Part shown: positions 11,744-22,575 of the stretch, piece after piece
How positions within the stretch are numbered: the first letter of the stretch is position 1
Layout of the letters: the number at the start of each line of letters is the position of its first letter
Assembly: GCA_902515775.1 (NCBI GenBank)
Contig: CABXVU010000004.1
Location: 2,746 to 66,745 of the forward strand
Length of the DNA: 64,000 nucleotides
Source: an uncultured SAR86 cluster bacterium
Lineage (GTDB): Bacteria > Pseudomonadota > Gammaproteobacteria > Magnimaribacterales > D2472
Direction: 5' to 3'
Notes under the pieces: generated by a model
Databases searched by the model: none
What the model saw: only the letters and a program-made list of their open reading frames with translations
What the model was told of the DNA's origin: nothing
Made by a program: the position numbers and the translations under genes

Positions 11744-13006
11744 TTAAGTTTCTGATGATCTTTGTTTGAATTCAAGAACAGTAGCATTAATGCAATATCT
11801 TGGCATGCCATTTGGTCCGTCAGAAAAAACATGGCCAAGGTGTATATCAGAAGTCACTGATCTTATTTCAGTCCTTCTCATCCCATAACTATTGTCAGGC
11901 TTAGAATAAACAGATCCTTCAATAGGTCTAGTAAAAGAAAGCCAACCCGTGGAAGAATTAAATCTATCTTTTGTATCAAATAATGGTGCTCCACTGAGCT
12001 TATCTACGAAAATTCCATCAGGCGTATTCTTGAAAATCTCATATTCTTTGCAAAATCTTGCATCTGTCCCTTTTTCGAATGCAACCCGGTAAGCCTCTGA
12101 GTCTCCCAATTTAAAGTAACCAAGGGCCTGATAAAATTCCTTTGGATTTAAGTATCCTTGATGAGCAAAAACCTCTTTGCCATTTTCTAAAAATAAAATA
12201 GTTGGAGTGGCCCATGTAGGAGAATCAATTTCAAGGCCTTCCAATTGGTGTGCAAATCTATAGATAACTGGAATATCGCCATCATAATTTTTCACAACAT
12301 TTGCGTTAAATTTTTCACAATAGGGACAAAACCCTTCTGCTTCAATAACTATTATTTTTTTTCCAATCAAAAGTTGAGAATTATCAATTATTGATGCCTT
12401 ATTGGTTTTGGCAAACTTAACTCCTGTAGAGTGATCGGGACAATATCCACTTGGATTTTTTGCAATGTAATCTTGATGATAGTTTTCGGCCATATAAAAT
12501 TTTTCAATTGGCTTAACTGAGGTAGCAATAACCCCATATCCTTCATTTGATAAAAGTGTTTGAAAAGTTTGAACTACGCTTTCAATGATCTTCTTTTGTT
12601 CTTCATTGCTGTACAAAATAATAGATCTATATTGAGTTCCTATGTCGTTACCTTGTCTATTTATTTGAGTTGGATCATGAGATTCAAAATAATGCATTAA
12701 AAGTTTTTCTGTTGAAATAATATTCTTGTTGTATGTAACCTCAACTACTTCAGCATGATTATTAGCATTAAACTTATTTTTCAACTTTGTAATTTCTCTA
12801 TAGGTCGGACGGATACCATTGCCATCAGCATATCCAGAAACTGCGTCTATTACTCCTGGTAATGCTTCATAACCTTTTTCAGCTCCCCAAAAACAACCTG
12901 ATCCAAGAATAATTTTTTCAGAATGAATGGTTGCTTCATTGACAGTTGAAGAAAGGGAAAAGCTCAATAAAGAGGTTGTTATTACAAATAAGGTTATATT
13001 TTTCAT
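11744..13006 (-). CDS. msrAB: Exported trifunctional methionine sulfoxide reductase: MsrA - thioredoxin-fold (CPYC) - MsrB
   Basis: 420 aa. Signal-like N-terminus, then MsrA (GSGCFWGAEKGY, HDPTQINRQGNDIGTQYRS), a Trx-fold with CPYC and cis-Pro TPT, and MsrB (GWLSF, HLGHVF, RYCINA). Confidence 0.85.
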   Translation of the reverse strand: MKNITLFVITTSLLSFSLSSTVNEATIHSEKIILGSGCFWGAEKGYEALPGVIDAVSGYADGNGIRPTYREITKLKNKFNANNHAEVVEVTYNKNIISTEKLLMHYFESHDPTQINRQGNDIGTQYRSIILYSNEEQKKIIESVVQTFQTLLSNEGYGVIATSVKPIEKFYMAENYHQDYIAKNPSGYCPDHSTGVKFAKTNKASIIDNSQLLIGKKIIVIEAEGFCPYCEKFNANVVKNYDGDIPVIYRFAHQLEGLEIDSPTWATPTILFLENGKEVFAHQGYLNPKEFYQALGYFKLGDSEAYRVAFEKGTDARFCKEYEIFKNTPDGIFVDKLSGAPLFDTKDRFNSSTGWLSFTRPIEGSVYSKPDNSYGMRRTEIRSVTSDIHLGHVFSDGPNGMPRYCINATVLEFKQRSSET

Positions 13007-13848
13007 TAATCTAAATGCTGAATGAGTAAAGTAGGCACATTATGATTGTGTGATTTAATTGTTGCAACAAGGGTTTTTTCTTTGATGCCTTTTTGCACAG
13101 GTGTAACTTCAATCCCCTCAGTTATGAGTCTTTTGTGAGCCTTTTCTATATCCTTTACATCCCAGGCAAGTCCCCACATTTGATCATTGGATGACAAATC
13201 ATCTTTTTGCTCAATGACCTCAATCGTGGTTTTATTGAGTCGAAAAAAAAGCATTCGTTTGTTCCAGTGCTCAATGATTTTGTCTAAAGCAAGTCGAATA
13301 TTAAAAGCATCTTTGTAAATTTTAATAAAACCGTCAGCATCATTGGTATTAATTACAACGTGATCCAATTTATGGGGTGAAGAGGCATTTAACGCTTTTG
13401 ATTGAGGGAGATTCTCATCTAAGTGCTCTATTACAAATGAAAATATACCTCTAGTAAGCTCAGGAGGCAAAAATAAATTTTTCCAATTTCTTGTCTGTTG
13501 ATCAGAATTATTTATTCCTTGTTCACTGGATGGCTCTTCAACTAGAAATCCTTTTTCTACAAGGGAATGCCTTGCTGAATTTATATCTTCAGTTGCAAAA
13601 ACCATTCCTATCAAGCCCTCTCCACTTTGCGCAAGATAATGATTAACTAGATCAGCGCCCGCGCCATTGCCAGAAGCAGATAAAAGTTCAAAATATGTAT
13701 TTTCAAAATTAAACAGTGAATTGCTTGTTCCTAAATCTTTGTGAGTACCCTTCCAAACTGGAGGGAAGCCAAATAATTTTTTATAGTTGTTTTCTGCCTC
13801 CTCTAAATCTTTAACAGCAACAATTAAATGATCTAGCTTTGTAAACAT
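13006..13848 (-). CDS. VOC (glyoxalase/bleomycin-resistance/dioxygenase) family protein, two-domain
   Basis: 280 aa with two LDH-type VOC modules (KLDHLIVAVKD; KLDHVVINTND). Its stop overlaps the msrAB ATG (TAATG). Confidence 0.6.
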   Translation of the reverse strand: MFTKLDHLIVAVKDLEEAENNYKKLFGFPPVWKGTHKDLGTSNSLFNFENTYFELLSASGNGAGADLVNHYLAQSGEGLIGMVFATEDINSARHSLVEKGFLVEEPSSEQGINNSDQQTRNWKNLFLPPELTRGIFSFVIEHLDENLPQSKALNASSPHKLDHVVINTNDADGFIKIYKDAFNIRLALDKIIEHWNKRMLFFRLNKTTIEVIEQKDDLSSNDQMWGLAWDVKDIEKAHKRLITEGIEVTPVQKGIKEKTLVATIKSHNHNVPTLLIQHLD

Positions 13849-13862
13849 CTTTATTTCCCTGC

Positions 13863-14966
13863 TTATAAACTTTTTTGATATCCAATAATAATTTGATAGT
13901 CTGTTTTCATTTGAAGGTTATTTTTATCTTGATCAAGAGGTTTTAGTATTTCAACGCCAATGGTATCTTTGCCACCAGGTAAGAGATCCAAGTTTAAATT
14001 CATACCTAGGCCCAAGTGTAATTCTTTACCACCATAATTATTTGGATTTGCAGTTTGGACTGGGGCCATAATTAATGGGTTTCTTCCAGACAAGCTATCT
14101 GCGTCAACAAACTTTAGTCTAGATGAGATAGACATTATCTTTGATAATGAATATTGTGCCCATGAGCTAAGCTCTGTTGCATCGCCAAAAGACCAATCTG
14201 CCTCTGAGACAACAATTTTTCTTTTAAGCTGATTGCCCAAGAAAATACCTTCACCTAATTCTCTTAAATTGGTTAAACCAAAGATTAGGCTTGTAGAGTC
14301 ATCCCCAGGCTGCATTGCATAGGGCATGATCATTTTCATTTTTTTTCCCATAGGTGTTAATGCCATTGCCGTAGAGTCATTTTTGCCAATTGATTCTTTT
14401 AGTGAAATCTCTCCATGCCATTTTGAATTATCGGTTTGACTAATATTAAAGAGACCGCTAAGAGTAAGGCTTGAAAGATCGCTTGCAGATGTACTAAATT
14501 GTCCCACTAGGTTTCTTGCCATCATGGGAGAAAATGAACTTAGGTTCATGTCTTTGGAAACATAGGTTGCCATCAACATAAAAGTAAAATTATTGTTGGG
14601 CGCAAACATGGCATCAATCATGGTCATCTTCATGTCCATGTTTTTAGGAATAATGGAAAGATTGGTAGGCATAGTGCTAAGGGGATTTCTCATACTAAGA
14701 ATCTCTGAGTCGCTAATATTTTTTCCGTCTAAAATATTGCCATCCATTTTCATTCGCCCATGTTTAATGGATAACATGAAACCTTTATGATGCATATTTC
14801 CCATTATCCCAATTGGAATAAAGCCGTGGCTCATGGAATGATGGCTTGAATCCATTTCTGTCATTGCTGAATGGTCATGCATTGCATGATCATGTTCTAA
14901 TGAATCAACTTCAGCAAAAAGAAAAGTTGAAAGGAGAAAAAATATTTTTAGTAAAAGAAATTTCAT
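13863..14966 (-). CDS. Met/His-rich secreted protein, probable outer-membrane beta-barrel
   Basis: 367 aa with a signal peptide and an N-terminal HDHAMHDHSAMTEMDSSHHSMSH tract. I counted 32 Met by hand (about 9%). The C-terminal half has alternating beta-strand-like sequence. Confidence 0.5.
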   Translation of the reverse strand: MKFLLLKIFFLLSTFLFAEVDSLEHDHAMHDHSAMTEMDSSHHSMSHGFIPIGIMGNMHHKGFMLSIKHGRMKMDGNILDGKNISDSEILSMRNPLSTMPTNLSIIPKNMDMKMTMIDAMFAPNNNFTFMLMATYVSKDMNLSSFSPMMARNLVGQFSTSASDLSSLTLSGLFNISQTDNSKWHGEISLKESIGKNDSTAMALTPMGKKMKMIMPYAMQPGDDSTSLIFGLTNLRELGEGIFLGNQLKRKIVVSEADWSFGDATELSSWAQYSLSKIMSISSRLKFVDADSLSGRNPLIMAPVQTANPNNYGGKELHLGLGMNLNLDLLPGGKDTIGVEILKPLDQDKNNLQMKTDYQIIIGYQKSL

Positions 14967-15505
14967 GATTTTTTAAAAAAAAGTATTACGCCGGAAATAG
15001 ACGTAAATAGAGCAATAAATGAAAAAATTTTTAAAAGTATATTATCAATATTATCTCGGTCAACCCAATCCATTATATGCAAGCCCCACATCAGATCCCA
15101 AATCCGCCATTCAGAGGATCTTATGGCAACGATTTCACCAGTAAATGGGTTTTGATAAACGTTGACCTCTTTGCCAAGTTTTGTAAGAGATATCACTTTA
15201 TACAAAGGCAATTCTCTTCCCCTGTATTCAGATCCTCTTTTTGATTCTTCAATTATTTCGATGCTCTGAGGAATAAGAGTTGTTTTTTTTTCTACAATTT
15301 TTTTTGCAGCGTTAAAATTAAGCTTATCTGCATTAAAACTTGTATCAATTGGTGCTTTTGTTGAAGCTACAAGATACTGCTCTCCTCGAATATTTTCTAT
15401 TTTGTTAAAAGAAAAATAAATGCCAGATATTGTCCACAACAGCAACTGGATTGCTATTAGCAGACTAATGTATTTATGAAATTTTCGTAGAGTAATCTTT
15501 GCCAT
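14963..15505 (-). CDS. PepSY-domain membrane protein
   Basis: 180 aa with N- and C-terminal TM helices (LRKFHKYISLLIAIQLLLW...), a central PepSY-like segment and a WGLHIMDW motif. Overlaps its neighbours by 4 nt and 1 nt. Confidence 0.5.
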   Translation of the reverse strand: MAKITLRKFHKYISLLIAIQLLLWTISGIYFSFNKIENIRGEQYLVASTKAPIDTSFNADKLNFNAAKKIVEKKTTLIPQSIEIIEESKRGSEYRGRELPLYKVISLTKLGKEVNVYQNPFTGEIVAIRSSEWRIWDLMWGLHIMDWVDRDNIDNILLKIFSFIALFTSISGVILFFKKS

Positions 15506-15900
15506 TAATCATGACAATCACAATCAAGTTTTCTGCACGCTTGAAAGTTTTGATAATGCGAATAAGCGACTATTAATGAGCCTAAAAAGGTTAAAATTTG
15601 TTCAGCCAGCTCTCCAAAAACGCCCTCTCCAAAAAAGACAGCAAAAATTAAGAGCCAAAGACCTGAAATGCCTAAATACATATAGGATATGATTTTGTGG
15701 TTTTGAAATCCAGAAACCAGAGCATACAGACTTATTGGTATAACCAATATTAAAAAGATTTTATGAATAAGCTCGTTATCAATTGTGAGGGCTAGAAAGC
15801 CAGAGGTCAGAATTAAAAATGAGGGCATTAACAGGCAGTGAATCATACATGCCATCGACAATGTGATTGATAGTTTGTCTGCTTTTAATTGCGTATTCAT
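15505..15900 (-). CDS. MerC-like metal-binding membrane protein
   Basis: 131 aa with four TM helices, a Cys pair in TM1 (MACMIHCLLMP) and a C-terminal CRKLDCDCHD cluster. Confidence 0.55.
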   Translation of the reverse strand: MNTQLKADKLSITLSMACMIHCLLMPSFLILTSGFLALTIDNELIHKIFLILVIPISLYALVSGFQNHKIISYMYLGISGLWLLIFAVFFGEGVFGELAEQILTFLGSLIVAYSHYQNFQACRKLDCDCHD

Positions 15901-15960
15901 AATTTTCGAAGAATGATTCTATTGAAGATAATTATTTTTCACAAGTAATTTTTATGCTTG

Positions 15961-16497
15961 CTATGCAGTTACCTTATTCTCAATTCTATTCATTATAATA
16001 TAGTAAATTGGTGTCATTAGGACTGTATATGCTATTACTTGTGGTCCTATAATTTCAAATAAAGCGAAACATGACATCCCGGCAACAAAAATAAAAAATA
16101 ATTCTAGATAGCTTTTAATAAAACCTTCTTGAAATGCAGCTTTGAATATTAAGAAATTAATAGGAAGATAAAGCAACACACCTGTAATAGCTCCTGGGCT
16201 GAAATCAGCAAAATAAAAGCTAAAGAAAACATGAAACAGTGCATTTACTACCTGGGTAGTCATTAAGAAGAATAGAACAATGTGGGCACTACCTCTGTTA
16301 TTTTTTAATAGGTGTATAAAGACCATTATCAATAGCAGTGAAATCAATCTAATGAGCACCTCTTCTGTTGCTATCGCATTATTATCTGCAAAATAAGTGA
16401 GTCGCCAGTCTCTAAAGTTAAAAATTATGTGCTCTTCAAAGTGATGAATAGCATAAATCAAAGGACCTAAAACAATAAGATTTTTAAACTCGGTCAC
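15961..16497 (-). CDS. HXXEE domain membrane protein
   Basis: 178 aa, polytopic, with HHFEEH near the N-terminus. Confidence 0.55.
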   Translation of the reverse strand: MTEFKNLIVLGPLIYAIHHFEEHIIFNFRDWRLTYFADNNAIATEEVLIRLISLLLIMVFIHLLKNNRGSAHIVLFFLMTTQVVNALFHVFFSFYFADFSPGAITGVLLYLPINFLIFKAAFQEGFIKSYLELFFIFVAGMSCFALFEIIGPQVIAYTVLMTPIYYIIMNRIENKVTA

Positions 16498-16506
16498 AGA
16501 GATCCT

Positions 16507-17148
16507 TTAGCTTTTATAAAATTTTTTATAAAAAAAATAACATAAAGCAGGCAAAACTGCGGCGCCAGTAAATGCAAGAAAAGACGAGTTGCTATCTATT
16601 GCTGCGGCGCCTATTCCTGAAAAAACTATCGCAACTCCTAAATTAGTTATTCCGACAACAAAAATAAAATTCTTAAAAGGCATTTTAGATAAACCTGCAC
16701 TTAAAGTTATAAGCTCGGCAAAACCTGGGACTGGTCTAGATAGAATTAATCCAAGAGTATTAAAGTTTTTCAATGCTTTTTCAGCATCATTAAATTCTTC
16801 ATTAGAGATAATCTTCTTTGCGATTGGGCGAGCTGCAATGCTACCAAGTAAATATCCAATGCAGGCTCCTAAATTAAGGCCTATCCAAACCACGATTGAA
16901 GACATACCCCAACCCAGCGACATCCCAGACAAAGTATTGGTAAGGCCATTAGGCACTGGCAAGATTACGTCTGCCGTTAACGCACCAATTACTATCAATG
17001 AAATAGCCATTTTATTAGTTCCTGCCCAAGCCAACGCAGCATCTGCATAAGTTGATAAAGGAGTTTCTAAAAAAATTAAAGGTAAAAGAATAGAAGTAAA
17101 AAATATGATGCTAAAGGAAGTCCATTTAATGATTGGCATTAAGCGCAT
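16507..17148 (-). CDS. DedA/TVP38-like (VTT domain) membrane protein
   Basis: 213 aa, polytopic. Pattern call only. Confidence 0.45.
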   Translation of the reverse strand: MRLMPIIKWTSFSIIFFTSILLPLIFLETPLSTYADAALAWAGTNKMAISLIVIGALTADVILPVPNGLTNTLSGMSLGWGMSSIVVWIGLNLGACIGYLLGSIAARPIAKKIISNEEFNDAEKALKNFNTLGLILSRPVPGFAELITLSAGLSKMPFKNFIFVVGITNLGVAIVFSGIGAAAIDSNSSFLAFTGAAVLPALCYFFYKKFYKS

Positions 17149-17175
17149 AATTTTTGTGAGTTTATTTTTAATTGT

Positions 17176-17973
17176 CTACCAATTATCACGCAATCCTCGT
17201 AAGCCAATAAAGGTTTTTTGACGATCTAAACTATTCACATCAATTTTTAATGAATCTGCGATTCCAAGTCGAACCTGCTGTTCATCGAGTCTAAAAAAAA
17301 CGTTGATTTCTCTTTCTAATCCAATATCACTTATAAAGCTTTCAGCATCGAGACCGCTTTTAAACTTATCTCTCAGTTGTTTAGCAGACTGATTATCTGG
17401 TTCTCTATCTAATGTAAACTCTAAATTATTTTCAATATAATCATGTCCTGGATATATACGAACATTGTCTGAAAGCAAAAAGATCTGTTCTTCAAATGTT
17501 TTATGAAGAATTGATGGCTCTCCTCCAAAATCACATCGCCCTACTCCTGCATTGAATAAAGTGTCACCGCAAAATAAAGCAGGCATTTCATTATCGCTGC
17601 CCTCATAATATAAACAAATATGGCTCATTGTATGACCGGGAGTATCCATTACCTTCAAAGTTAATTCTCCGCATGTCAACTCATCCCCAGCATTTAAGCC
17701 TCTATCAACATTGGGAATAGCATTCATGGCTTCAATATGAGCTACTAATTTAGCGCCAGTTTCAGAAATTACAGGGTCGTTGCCACCTATATGGTCATGA
17801 TGATGGTGGGTGTTAGCAACTGTTTTTATTGTCCAACCATTTTTTTTAGCAATTTTAAGACATAAAGCATGATCCAACGGATCAATTGCAATTGCCTCGT
17901 GAGTTTTTTCACATGCCAATAAATACATATAATTTTTTAGGTTATTTCTTATAGGTATCTGCTTAATAAGCAT
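17176..17973 (-). CDS. gloB: Hydroxyacylglutathione hydrolase (glyoxalase II), MBL fold
   Basis: 265 aa with THHHHDHIGGN, TPGHT and a C-terminal substrate-binding tail of GloB length. Confidence 0.8.
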   Translation of the reverse strand: MLIKQIPIRNNLKNYMYLLACEKTHEAIAIDPLDHALCLKIAKKNGWTIKTVANTHHHHDHIGGNDPVISETGAKLVAHIEAMNAIPNVDRGLNAGDELTCGELTLKVMDTPGHTMSHICLYYEGSDNEMPALFCGDTLFNAGVGRCDFGGEPSILHKTFEEQIFLLSDNVRIYPGHDYIENNLEFTLDREPDNQSAKQLRDKFKSGLDAESFISDIGLEREINVFFRLDEQQVRLGIADSLKIDVNSLDRQKTFIGLRGLRDNW

Positions 17974-18137
17974 TTATTTCACGCACGTGGGAAATACCGC
18001 TAGAAAAGAGGTATTAATTTCAAGTTTAATCGTTGCTTATGAGCAACAATCGCAAGTACAGCAACTACAACATTTACACATGAGTGTAATGTTAAACTAA
18101 TTTTACAGGCATTTCACCTTTGCTAGAATCTTTCCAC

Positions 18138-18464
18138 TTATGTCAAATTATTTTTTATAAATAATCTGTCGATCATATTTAATGGATCTTTGTAAATGTT
18201 TTTTCCATTTACAAGAACAGAAATCTTGACAGAAAAAAATCCGCCTATGAAGACCTCAATTGAATCAATATCTTCAGAAAAATTATAACTTTTTAAAAAA
18301 GGCTTACTTGTATTAGGGATCATGCTTGTATTCTGGTCAAGATGTTGATTATCAATATATAAATCTGCAGATCCCTTGAGATTCCAACCCCACCAATTAG
18401 ATATCAAAATATTATGCTTTTGATAATTGATCTCCCATTTTTGAAGGTTGGGTTTTTTTTGCAT
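18138..18464 (-). CDS. Hypothetical protein
   Basis: 108 aa, 3 nt downstream of the preceding secreted-protein gene. I recognised no family. Confidence 0.4.
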   Translation of the reverse strand: MQKKPNLQKWEINYQKHNILISNWWGWNLKGSADLYIDNQHLDQNTSMIPNTSKPFLKSYNFSEDIDSIEVFIGGFFSVKISVLVNGKNIYKDPLNMIDRLFIKNNLT

Positions 18465-21528: not shown

Positions 21529-22449
21529 TTAAAAGTCTAGTGCATCAACAATTTTCCTAATTTCTTTTATGTGAGAAGTTGTTGTTCTGCAACAGCCGCC
21601 TATCACCGAAGCTCCTTTAGTAATCCATTCGGAAACAAACTCTCTATACTCTAAATGATTGATATGTTGATGATTGTGATAATGCCATTCTTCAGAGTCA
21701 GTAACAAAACCCTCTAACTTATTTTTTTTATATATAGAGGAGTTTGCATATATACCAAAACTTTTTTCTTTTTTAAGTTTATCGATTGCCATGCTCGCAG
21801 TATCTGCGTGTACACAATTTACTAGTTGACAATCGACATTTAATTTTAGCCCTTCATCAATTGCAAGATCTAATAACTCTGTGCTTGGGAGTCTGTTAAG
21901 TTTATTTCCCCTTGTTGTCCAACTTAACCAAACTCGGTCTGAAAAATTTTTAGCAGTTGATGCTGCAATAGTGCCCTCATAAATTGATGCCATTGTTTCA
22001 CAGATAATTAAATCTACATCATCTTTGTAAATTTCGCCTAAGGTTGCATAAAACTTTTTTAATTTTTTTTCTTTTGCACTTAAATCAGGCCTAAAGGTTA
22101 TGTGGATTGGTGGAAAGCAACCAGCGATCTTTGTATTTGCTCCAGTTTCAATAACAGCTTCTTTGCATAATTCAAGTGATTTTTTTGCAAGATCTTCATA
22201 TGAAGGAGCCTTTGGCTCTCTAATAAGTAATTCTGGGGTGGCCTGATAATTTGATGTGGTAATTACATCAGCTCCCGCTTCAATGTTATCAACATGTATT
22301 TGTTTAATAACTTCTGGCTTATGTATTAAACAATGTGCTGACCAAATAGAAGTTTTAAAACTTGGGAGGTATTCGCCTCTATTTTCAAGCTCAGTGCCCA
22401 AGGCTGAATCAAGTATTAATGGTTTTTTAATTTTCATTTTTAAAGACAT
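21529..22449 (-). CDS. Homocysteine S-methyltransferase (MmuM/BHMT-like)
   Basis: 306 aa with a Pfam-S-methyl_trans-like layout, the C-terminal zinc ligand motif GGCCRTT, and an AGGAGG RBS. Confidence 0.8.
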   Translation of the reverse strand: MSLKMKIKKPLILDSALGTELENRGEYLPSFKTSIWSAHCLIHKPEVIKQIHVDNIEAGADVITTSNYQATPELLIREPKAPSYEDLAKKSLELCKEAVIETGANTKIAGCFPPIHITFRPDLSAKEKKLKKFYATLGEIYKDDVDLIICETMASIYEGTIAASTAKNFSDRVWLSWTTRGNKLNRLPSTELLDLAIDEGLKLNVDCQLVNCVHADTASMAIDKLKKEKSFGIYANSSIYKKNKLEGFVTDSEEWHYHNHQHINHLEYREFVSEWITKGASVIGGCCRTTTSHIKEIRKIVDALDF

Positions 22450-22533
22450 TCACACCTCCTTTATTTGCTGAACGCCATATCTTTTTTCCACCTTGCCGGA
22501 GTTGGCAGGTTGGAGAGGAAATAAATCCTTCTC
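22450..22533 (-). promoter_or_regulatory. Structured GC-rich 5' leader of the homocysteine methyltransferase gene (candidate riboswitch-like element)
   Basis: Two adjacent hairpins: 22513-22533 (gagagga/tccttctc) and 22488-22513 (ccaccttgcc/ggcaggttgg). A CCUCU-containing strand could alternatively pair with the AGGAGG SD at 22455-22460. Confidence 0.3.
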
Positions 22534-22575
22534 ATGATATATAGTCCGAATTTTATCAAAAATTTAAAGAATTTG

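Follow-up and report, generated by a model that had tools for sequence, protein, structure and literature searches.

The DNA considered here is a 64,000-nucleotide stretch of the genome of an uncultured SAR86 cluster bacterium, referred to as the window, and the subject is a trio of tightly packed genes on its reverse strand, the last of which encodes a methionine-rich outer-membrane barrel. In the open reading frame (ORF) list, the first gene at 15505-15900 encodes a 131-residue protein of the MerC family (Pfam PF03203), the second at 14963-15505 a 180-residue PepSY_TM protein (PF03929) and the third at 13863-14966 a 367-residue protein whose barrel fold is seen in its AlphaFold2 (AF2) model. 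The TAA stop codon of the MerC-family gene and the ATG start codon of the PepSY gene have one nucleotide in common in the junction GATTAATGG (TAATG), and the PepSY and barrel genes overlap by four nucleotides, ATGA, in the junction AATCATGAAA. These junctions, read directly, bear out the overlaps given at 15505 and 14963-14966 in the first-pass annotation, which had regarded the trio as one translationally coupled operon. The coupling itself stands, but the limits do not, since a nine-gene array on the same strand reaches beyond them, from 18081 to 11744, and the actual unit is probably this array at 11744-18081. We judge it somewhat better than an even chance that the 367-residue protein is an outer-membrane copper channel, coupled to the PepSY_TM and MerC-like proteins in a nine-gene copper-stress operon.

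The 367-residue protein has the highest Met content of any ORF in the window. The 32 Met residues counted by hand in the first-pass annotation are matched exactly by the recount (32/367, 8.7%), whereas the mean over the 51 long ORFs of the window is 2.36% (binomial P ~4e-10), and the tracts HDHAMHDHSAMTEMDSSHHSMSH, KNMDMKMTMIDAM and GKKMKMIMPYAM quoted there are all present. Consistent with the outer-membrane barrel proposed earlier, the AF2 model built with 30 homologues is a barrel of 12 long strands with a predicted local distance difference test (pLDDT) score of 79.5 and a predicted template modelling (pTM) score of 0.76, and ahead of the barrel come a signal peptide and, at residues 16-47, a disordered segment; the disordered His/Met tract lies at residues ~20-47. 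About 17 Met residues are invariant in the alignment of the 30 homologues (47-82% identity), which also displays a C-terminal GYQKSF beta-signal. Conservation of the Met positions holds for the barrel itself and fails for the N-terminal His/Met tract, which is present in 19 homologues and short or absent in 11. When strand boundaries are combined with the alignment, about 11 of the invariant Met residues fall on the conserved face of strands 1 to 3, a face of polar and small residues: M64, M72 and M74 on strand 1, M110, M112, M114, M116 and M120 on strand 2, and M130, M132 and M140 on strand 3. The opposite face is variable and hydrophobic, with an aromatic girdle, and the alternation of the two faces along the sequence suggests that the Met stripe may face the lumen.

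The best match of the barrel model in a Foldseek search of the PDB is FapF (5o65, E=3e-12), followed by the COG4313 channel Pput2725 (4rl8, E=1e-10), for which the target-normalised TM-score is 0.74; each of the two is itself a barrel of 12 strands. Because these are the nearest solved folds, the barrel might be a typical channel of the COG4313 type that passes hydrophobic or amphipathic molecules, and its Met residues might form a sacrificial antioxidant surface that is recycled by a periplasmic MsrAB. COG4313 channels have been linked to the import of hydrophobic molecules (PMC4493636), and an MsrAB gene is co-linear with the barrel gene in the SAR86 clade of the window. However, the Met residues keep invariant, periodic positions along three neighbouring strands and are not scattered over a surface, and such a channel would leave unexplained the CsoR operators, the fusions to CusF, PCuAC and NosL and the location in a nos cluster that are described below. 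We regard the antioxidant channel as very improbable.

The barrel family comprises 1,925 clusters at 50% identity in an exhaustive profile search (E<=1e-3), and its members are named in their sources 'hypothetical protein', 'Transporter' or, for fusions, 'NosL'. The 367-residue protein has no match in Pfam or NCBIfam, and PDB sequence searches with the barrel returned chance matches only, whether the query was a single sequence or a profile. The first-pass annotation had compared the protein to the CopB/PcoB type, and this is not upheld at the level of sequence: none of 30 family members matches PF05275 at E<=10. Neither the window barrel nor its 29 closest relatives match PF13557, whereas more remote relatives that the family profile picked up reach 24.8-31.9 bits on this model, above its cutoff of 22, and retain the SGxGD and LPTGS motifs of COG4313/PF13557 channels. 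The family is therefore a divergent, Met-rich and unnamed branch of the COG4313/PF13557 superfamily of 12-strand barrels. A literature search found no earlier description of it as a copper channel.

The barrel family is tied to copper by three independent lines of support, namely CsoR regulation, chaperone fusions and a nos context. In 11 genomes of Porticoccaceae, Cellvibrionales and Woeseiaceae, a csoR gene (PF02583, E=3.5e-26) is divergent from the barrel gene, and the encoded repressor has the Y-C...H-x3-C signature that has been described for Cu(I) sensors (PMC8643695). Persulfide sensing of the CstR type was considered for this CsoR homologue and rejected, since it has both the His of the Y position and the Tyr that precedes the first Cys. 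TACCC-N-GGGTA boxes occur 11 times in 1.17 Mb of loci, and 10 of the 11 sit 55-75 nucleotides upstream of a barrel start; they match the published CsoR operator TAC-X9-GTA (PMC3902906). Because the genes that flank csoR and the barrel gene are unrelated housekeeping genes, the two form a self-contained module. The combination of such an operator with a nearby csoR gene, which the barrel gene shows in these groups with the box in 10 loci and the csoR gene in 11, is absent from the window and present in variants of the SAR86 island to which the trio belongs. Consistently, 6 of 16 scanned barrel members with an N-terminal extension carry a periplasmic Cu(I) chaperone domain, which is PCuAC in two (E=4e-32 and 2e-36), NosL in three (E=3e-13, 2e-9 and 1e-13) and CusF in one (E=4e-13). 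A NosL-barrel fusion of Tenacibaculum (GCA_022347705.1, 7001-8413 of locus L086), named just 'NosL' by NCBI, lies inside a nos cluster with the order nosZ, a separate nosL, the fusion, a CopD-like gene, nosD and nosF. The copper reading of the first-pass annotation is thus supported for the 367-residue barrel by way of these relatives, but not for an obligate three-part machine.

The 131-residue protein matches MerC PF03203 over residues 8-119 with E=2.1e-24 and 86.6 bits against a cutoff of 27.6, in line with its earlier description as MerC-like. Both the MACMIHCLLMP sequence in the first transmembrane (TM) segment, TM1, and the C-terminal CRKLDCDCHD are present as previously quoted, and the Cys positions proved to be conserved across 12 loci: none of the 12 homologues lacks the TM1 CxxHC, and 11 have the C-terminal CxxxxCxCH cluster, the protein of L002 ending before it. 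(L-numbers are labels of the compared loci; L001 is a SAR86 single-cell genome that is 99% identical to the window.) The TM1 spacing is CxxxC with a His, whereas the canonical spacing, as in Tn21 MerC, is CxxC. No mer genes were found among the eight neighbouring genes scanned, and the window lacks merR, merA and merP.

The 180-residue protein matches PepSY_TM PF03929 just above the cutoff (E=1e-7, 32.5 bits against 28.8) and has two hydrophobic segments, at residues 11-33 and 155-178, in agreement with its earlier description as a PepSY membrane protein. Its layout is a TM segment, a periplasmic PepSY domain, an amphipathic helix and a second TM segment, and the AF2 secondary structure, which is of low confidence, gives a helix, four strands and helices. 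Since His10 and His143 are invariant, a haem-binding PepSY homodimer is possible. PDB sequence searches with the MerC and PepSY proteins gave no match.

The context of the barrel gene was surveyed in 80 species-level genomes that have it. PepSY adjoins the barrel in 21 of these species, all of them SAR86-type, and MerC is near it in 12, all SAR86, other genes intervening before PepSY in four of the 12. Outside SAR86, the barrel occurs alone or with CsoR. Of the informative loci among SAR86 metagenome variants, only about half have the barrel after PepSY. Homologue listings covered the best 120 of 455 MerC and the best 120 of 2,622 PepSY sequences, all at 76% identity or more, and so added no new contexts to the survey. 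General co-occurrence of the three families, which the first-pass annotation had envisaged, is therefore not observed, and the adjacency counts in the surveyed genomes show that the three genes are recurrent neighbours in a modular association that is specific to the SAR86 lineage, not an obligate three-part machine.

Such counts can be taken further, to the view that the barrel alone is related to copper, that the MerC-like, PepSY and other genes are variable neighbours in a stress island without a common pathway and that the overlaps reflect the streamlining of SAR86 genomes. The barrel is found without PepSY or MerC in 59 of the 80 species, beside many unrelated genes; about half of the loci that have the polycysteine micro-ORF described below and can be followed past PepSY have PepSY without the barrel; the gene order of the island is heavily shuffled; and one-nucleotide overlaps are present at other junctions of the array as well. 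However, the PepSY-barrel pair recurs in the 21 species over a range of 44-100% barrel identity, once with the order inverted, and the same island repeatedly carries thiol transporters of the MerC and MerT types. PepSY_TM is also known as a partner of copper outer-membrane transporters, its genes following more than 75% of crtA genes for copper TonB-dependent transporters (PMC12914433). Furthermore, PepSY lies within CsoR-box operons of other SAR86 variants, in which a canonical CsoR box is followed, in this order, by genes for a small outer-membrane protein-like product, an HMA protein of the periplasm, a CC protein resembling MerT, CsoR and PepSY. Such variants are L110, L149 and L183, about +1340 to +3800 from the micro-ORF, and L154 and L158 in a divergent arrangement; the small outer-membrane protein-like product behind the box has ~200 residues and no Pfam match, and the HMA protein is His-rich. 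These variants place PepSY and thiol-type soft-metal carriers in a copper-derepressed operon within SAR86, and the arrangement is a mer-like layout under a copper sensor. We regard a copper role confined to the barrel as unlikely.

The array around the trio has gaps of at most 63 nucleotides and the order micro-ORF, metallo-beta-lactamase (MBL), DedA, HXXEE, MerC-like, PepSY_TM, barrel, VOC and MsrAB, all on the reverse strand. Its head is the micro-ORF MCKCCSCCTCDCCS at 18037-18081, with 14 codons, nine of which encode Cys. An MBL-fold, glyoxalase-II-like gene (Pfam Lactamase_B and HAGH_C) lies at 17176-17973, a gene for a DedA/VTT-domain membrane protein (VTT_dom) at 16507-17148 and one for an HXXEE-family membrane protein (PF13787) at 15961-16497. 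Synteny places the DedA gene within the array only in the window genome and its closest relatives, and the HXXEE gene recurs next to the micro-ORF and the MerC and PepSY genes. Downstream of the trio, a two-domain glyoxalase-like VOC gene (Glyoxalase_3/4) at 13006-13848 begins 14 nucleotides past the barrel gene and is its downstream neighbour in 11 genome loci. A second, unrelated VOC arrangement is seen in eight loci of another SAR86 clade (L055-L066), where a different 248-residue Glyoxalase_3-type protein is encoded upstream of the barrel, at gene -1. The last gene of the array, at 11744-13006, encodes a secreted MsrA-thioredoxin-MsrB fusion (PMSR, Thioredoxin_2 and SelR) whose N-terminus resembles a signal sequence; the start codon of the gene and the VOC stop have one nucleotide in common, and it is syntenic with the barrel in L001-L007 and also in metagenome loci. 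A simple promoter and terminator scan of 13700-18300 performed no better than on shuffled sequence.

Two further features of the surroundings were recorded. In one SAR86 clade, a protein of ~750 residues that by eye resembles a TonB-dependent receptor is encoded within a few kb of the barrel, with long inserts rich in His, Asp and Glu such as HDDDHGDEHGDDDHDDDHGDDHGDDDHDD (L051, L072, L076, L078 (+5 genes from the barrel) and L062). In the window, a 306-residue ORF at 21529-22449, which by eye looks like a homocysteine S-methyltransferase with a GGCCRTT motif near its C-terminus, has a SAM-I/IV riboswitch directly upstream, at 22451-22545 on the reverse strand (70.5 bits, E=1e-9).

The least expected element of the locus is the micro-ORF. 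Of the 80 genome loci, 18, in SAR86, contain it, always upstream of the barrel and on its strand, and a pattern scan found more than 120 copies in marine metagenomes with 38 peptide variants, all of which have the pattern CxCCxCCxCxCC. The gene that follows it is most commonly MBL, which is first in 23 metagenome loci, next a methyltransferase and next MerC; in some loci MerC is directly upstream of it, and in most informative loci the micro-ORF adjoins MerC or is separated from it by the MBL gene only. The cellular copies have no Shine-Dalgarno sequence and a -10-like TAnnnT box 4-6 nucleotides ahead of the ATG, which suggests that the micro-ORF is carried on a leaderless transcript. Eight copies lie on phage contigs, four in IMG/VR (L209-L212) and four on metagenome contigs with strong PHROG matches (L107, L141, L165 and L187). 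The phage peptide is MCKCCKCC[NS]CTCC(E), it is preceded by a strong Shine-Dalgarno sequence and it occurs in at least three different flanking contexts. The strong Shine-Dalgarno sequence of the phage copies indicates that the micro-ORF yields a translated micro-protein, and the pattern CxCCxCCxCxCC, conserved up to the phage copies, would be a metallothionein-like trait.

A cysteine-codon tract at the head of an array can also be read as a regulatory device, in which case the array would be a cysteine- or sulphur-status regulon, the micro-ORF a leaderless attenuator that senses Cys-tRNA and the downstream genes, among them those for the barrel, the MerC-like protein, MsrAB and the MBL-fold protein, scavengers or salvagers of reduced sulphur in a bacterium unable to reduce sulphate. 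SAR86 is not known to carry out assimilatory sulphate reduction, and the island contains genes related to Met and sulphur such as MsrAB and a methylthioadenosine-nucleosidase-like gene. The micro-ORF has 8-9 Cys codons together with the leaderless features noted above, two lineages have a hairpin over the last Cys codons and the stop codon, followed in some by a T-rich tail, and polycysteine attenuators encoded by leaderless short ORFs have a precedent in mycobacteria (bioRxiv 10.1101/834739). However, no RNA structure is kept across lineages, with z scores of ~0 in five of eight groups; the hairpin reaches significance in the L003 group alone (z=-3.2), gives a weaker signal in the window (z=-1.7) and is missing from most groups. 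Because the hairpin is limited to certain lineages, an attenuator of the mycobacterial type is possible and not well supported. The spacing from the micro-ORF to the next gene varies from 27 to more than 300 nucleotides, the phage copies lie in dense gene arrays behind their strong Shine-Dalgarno sequences, which points to a product and not a leader, and the barrel family is linked to copper, not to sulphur. We hold a sulphur regulon to be quite unlikely. A separate candidate, in which the micro-ORF would act as a nascent-chain copper sensor like CruR or CutF, was rejected as unlikely, since a 14-residue chain would presumably stay in the ribosomal tunnel until its release.

If the 367-residue protein is a copper channel, it would be a passive pore selective for Cu(I). 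A conserved N-terminal H-x-P-I-G-x-M-G-x-x-H-H motif and the ~11-Met stripe would line the lumen and hand Cu(I) from thioether to thioether. The pore being passive, the periplasmic side would set the net direction: a fused or partner chaperone (PCuAC, NosL or CusF) on that side in the case of acquisition, and a high periplasmic Cu(I) load, when CsoR derepresses the gene, in the case of defence. In SAR86, the translationally coupled barrel would work in contact with the two-TM PepSY_TM protein and the MerC-like protein, whose TM1 CxxHC and cytoplasmic Cys cluster may carry Cu(I) over the inner membrane, and the micro-ORF product may take up the imported metal in the cytoplasm, acting as a thiol sink or buffer. 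The periplasmic MsrA-thioredoxin-MsrB fusion would hold the Met ligands reduced by repairing oxidised Met in envelope proteins. By a mer-like logic, periplasmic Cu(I) would then be cleared both outward via the barrel and inward to the thiol sink. We lean towards copper-stress defence over acquisition, both CsoR contexts implying that excess copper is the inducer. Acquisition is a live alternative, kept so by analogy with the nos, PCuAC and PepSY_TM precedents.

Several observations weigh against a copper channel within a copper-stress operon. The main weakness lies at the window locus itself, where no CsoR box occurs anywhere in the window and the array has neither a copper regulator nor a classical copper gene of its own. 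Many array members (MBL fold, VOC, DedA, HXXEE, methyltransferases and cupin) have no known copper role, and MerC has been characterised solely for Hg(II) uptake. The trio is restricted to SAR86, and there are loci that have PepSY without the barrel. The PepSY model is poor (pLDDT 59.6) and unfit for a fold search, and with two TM segments a PepSY monomer cannot be a FoxB-type reductase, which has four TM segments and two haems. As for the barrel, the window protein misses both the PF13557 and CopB models, and the lumen-facing orientation of its Met stripe is read from sequence alternation, not from model coordinates. Finally, the regulatory contexts are opposed, the nos and PCuAC fusions implying acquisition and CsoR a response to copper excess.

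The only known routes for copper through the outer membrane are a few TonB-dependent transporters (OprC, NosA, CrtA and MbnT) and PcoB/CopB, for which the direction is disputed. A barrel family of ~1,900 clusters would be a widespread and so far unannotated copper route, and would join a Met stripe, CsoR control and direct fusions to the metallochaperones of cytochrome oxidase and N2O reductase. This would bear on how limitation by copper and its toxicity affect abundant ocean bacteria (SAR86, PS1 and Porticoccaceae), on N2O reductase maturation and on the annotation of 'hypothetical' and 'transporter' outer-membrane proteins. The micro-ORF, being shared with phages, is a candidate for a new class of micro-protein or for a ribosome-based sensor in a streamlined, regulator-poor genome. 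In its most far-reaching form, which we put forward tentatively and consider rather doubtful, the locus encodes an undescribed mer-like defence of SAR86, in which a Met-lined passive pore and MerC/MerT-like carriers clear periplasmic Cu(I) into a polycysteine sink of 13-16 residues. Were this true, Met-stripe barrels would be the missing general passive copper route in Gram-negative outer membranes, feeding PCuAC, NosL and CusF directly, and the micro-ORF product would be the smallest metallothionein-like product known and an auxiliary gene of marine phages.

Each part of the locus resembles a known system and departs from it. The micro-ORF shares with the mycobacterial polycysteine attenuators its position as a very short, apparently leaderless first cistron dominated by Cys codons. 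However, it occurs in another phylum, has no conserved structure that sequesters a ribosome-binding site and follows the strict CxCCxCCxCxCC pattern; moreover, its phage copies have their own ribosome-binding sites, and the genes downstream are not cysteine-biosynthetic. The likeness to the mer transport genes (merC, merT and merP) consists of the MerC-family membership with the TM1 Cys pair and the cytoplasmic C-terminal Cys cluster, the MerT-like CC protein and periplasmic HMA (MerP-like) protein of the island variants, and the logic of thiol-based inward transfer of a soft metal, whereas the regulator, where one exists, is CsoR, of the Cu(I) type. Copper uptake operons of the cruR-crtA-PepSY_TM and oprC types, which can start with a copper-sensing upstream ORF (PMC9426467, PMC12914433), likewise place an outer-membrane transporter gene beside PepSY_TM and a small Cys-containing ORF at the head. 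They differ in gene order and in using a 22-strand TonB-dependent transporter instead of a 12-strand passive barrel; the PepSY_TM protein of those systems has two large periplasmic domains, whereas the 180-residue protein is a single repeat, and in place of CruR, a DUF2946 protein that bears CXXC and a RAPP arrest motif, there is the 14-residue polycysteine peptide.

The barrel itself has two counterparts. PcoB combines a barrel of 12 strands with an N-terminal His/Met domain that is disordered (PMC9210255; PMC12509749), and the barrel family shares with PcoB/CopB (PF05275) the signal peptide, the poorly conserved disordered His/Met-rich N-terminus, the 12 strands and, in part of the family, copper-responsive regulation; the direction of PcoB transport is debated too. 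However, a sequence relationship is not detectable, and PcoB is outside the top 50 Foldseek matches of the barrel. PcoB has an electronegative Asp/Glu funnel in place of the Met stripe, no multicopper oxidase partner is seen for the barrel, and control is by CsoR instead of a two-component system. The COG4313/PF13557 channels (Pput2725, SphA and TcpY) have the same 12-strand barrel with an N-terminal segment before strand 1. Their characterised members import hydrophobic molecules and have no copper link, and the SAR86 protein has diverged too far to match the Pfam model. What is specific to the branch described here, a new copper-linked variant on an already known fold, is its Met stripe, its His/Met tail, its control by CsoR and its fusions to copper chaperones.

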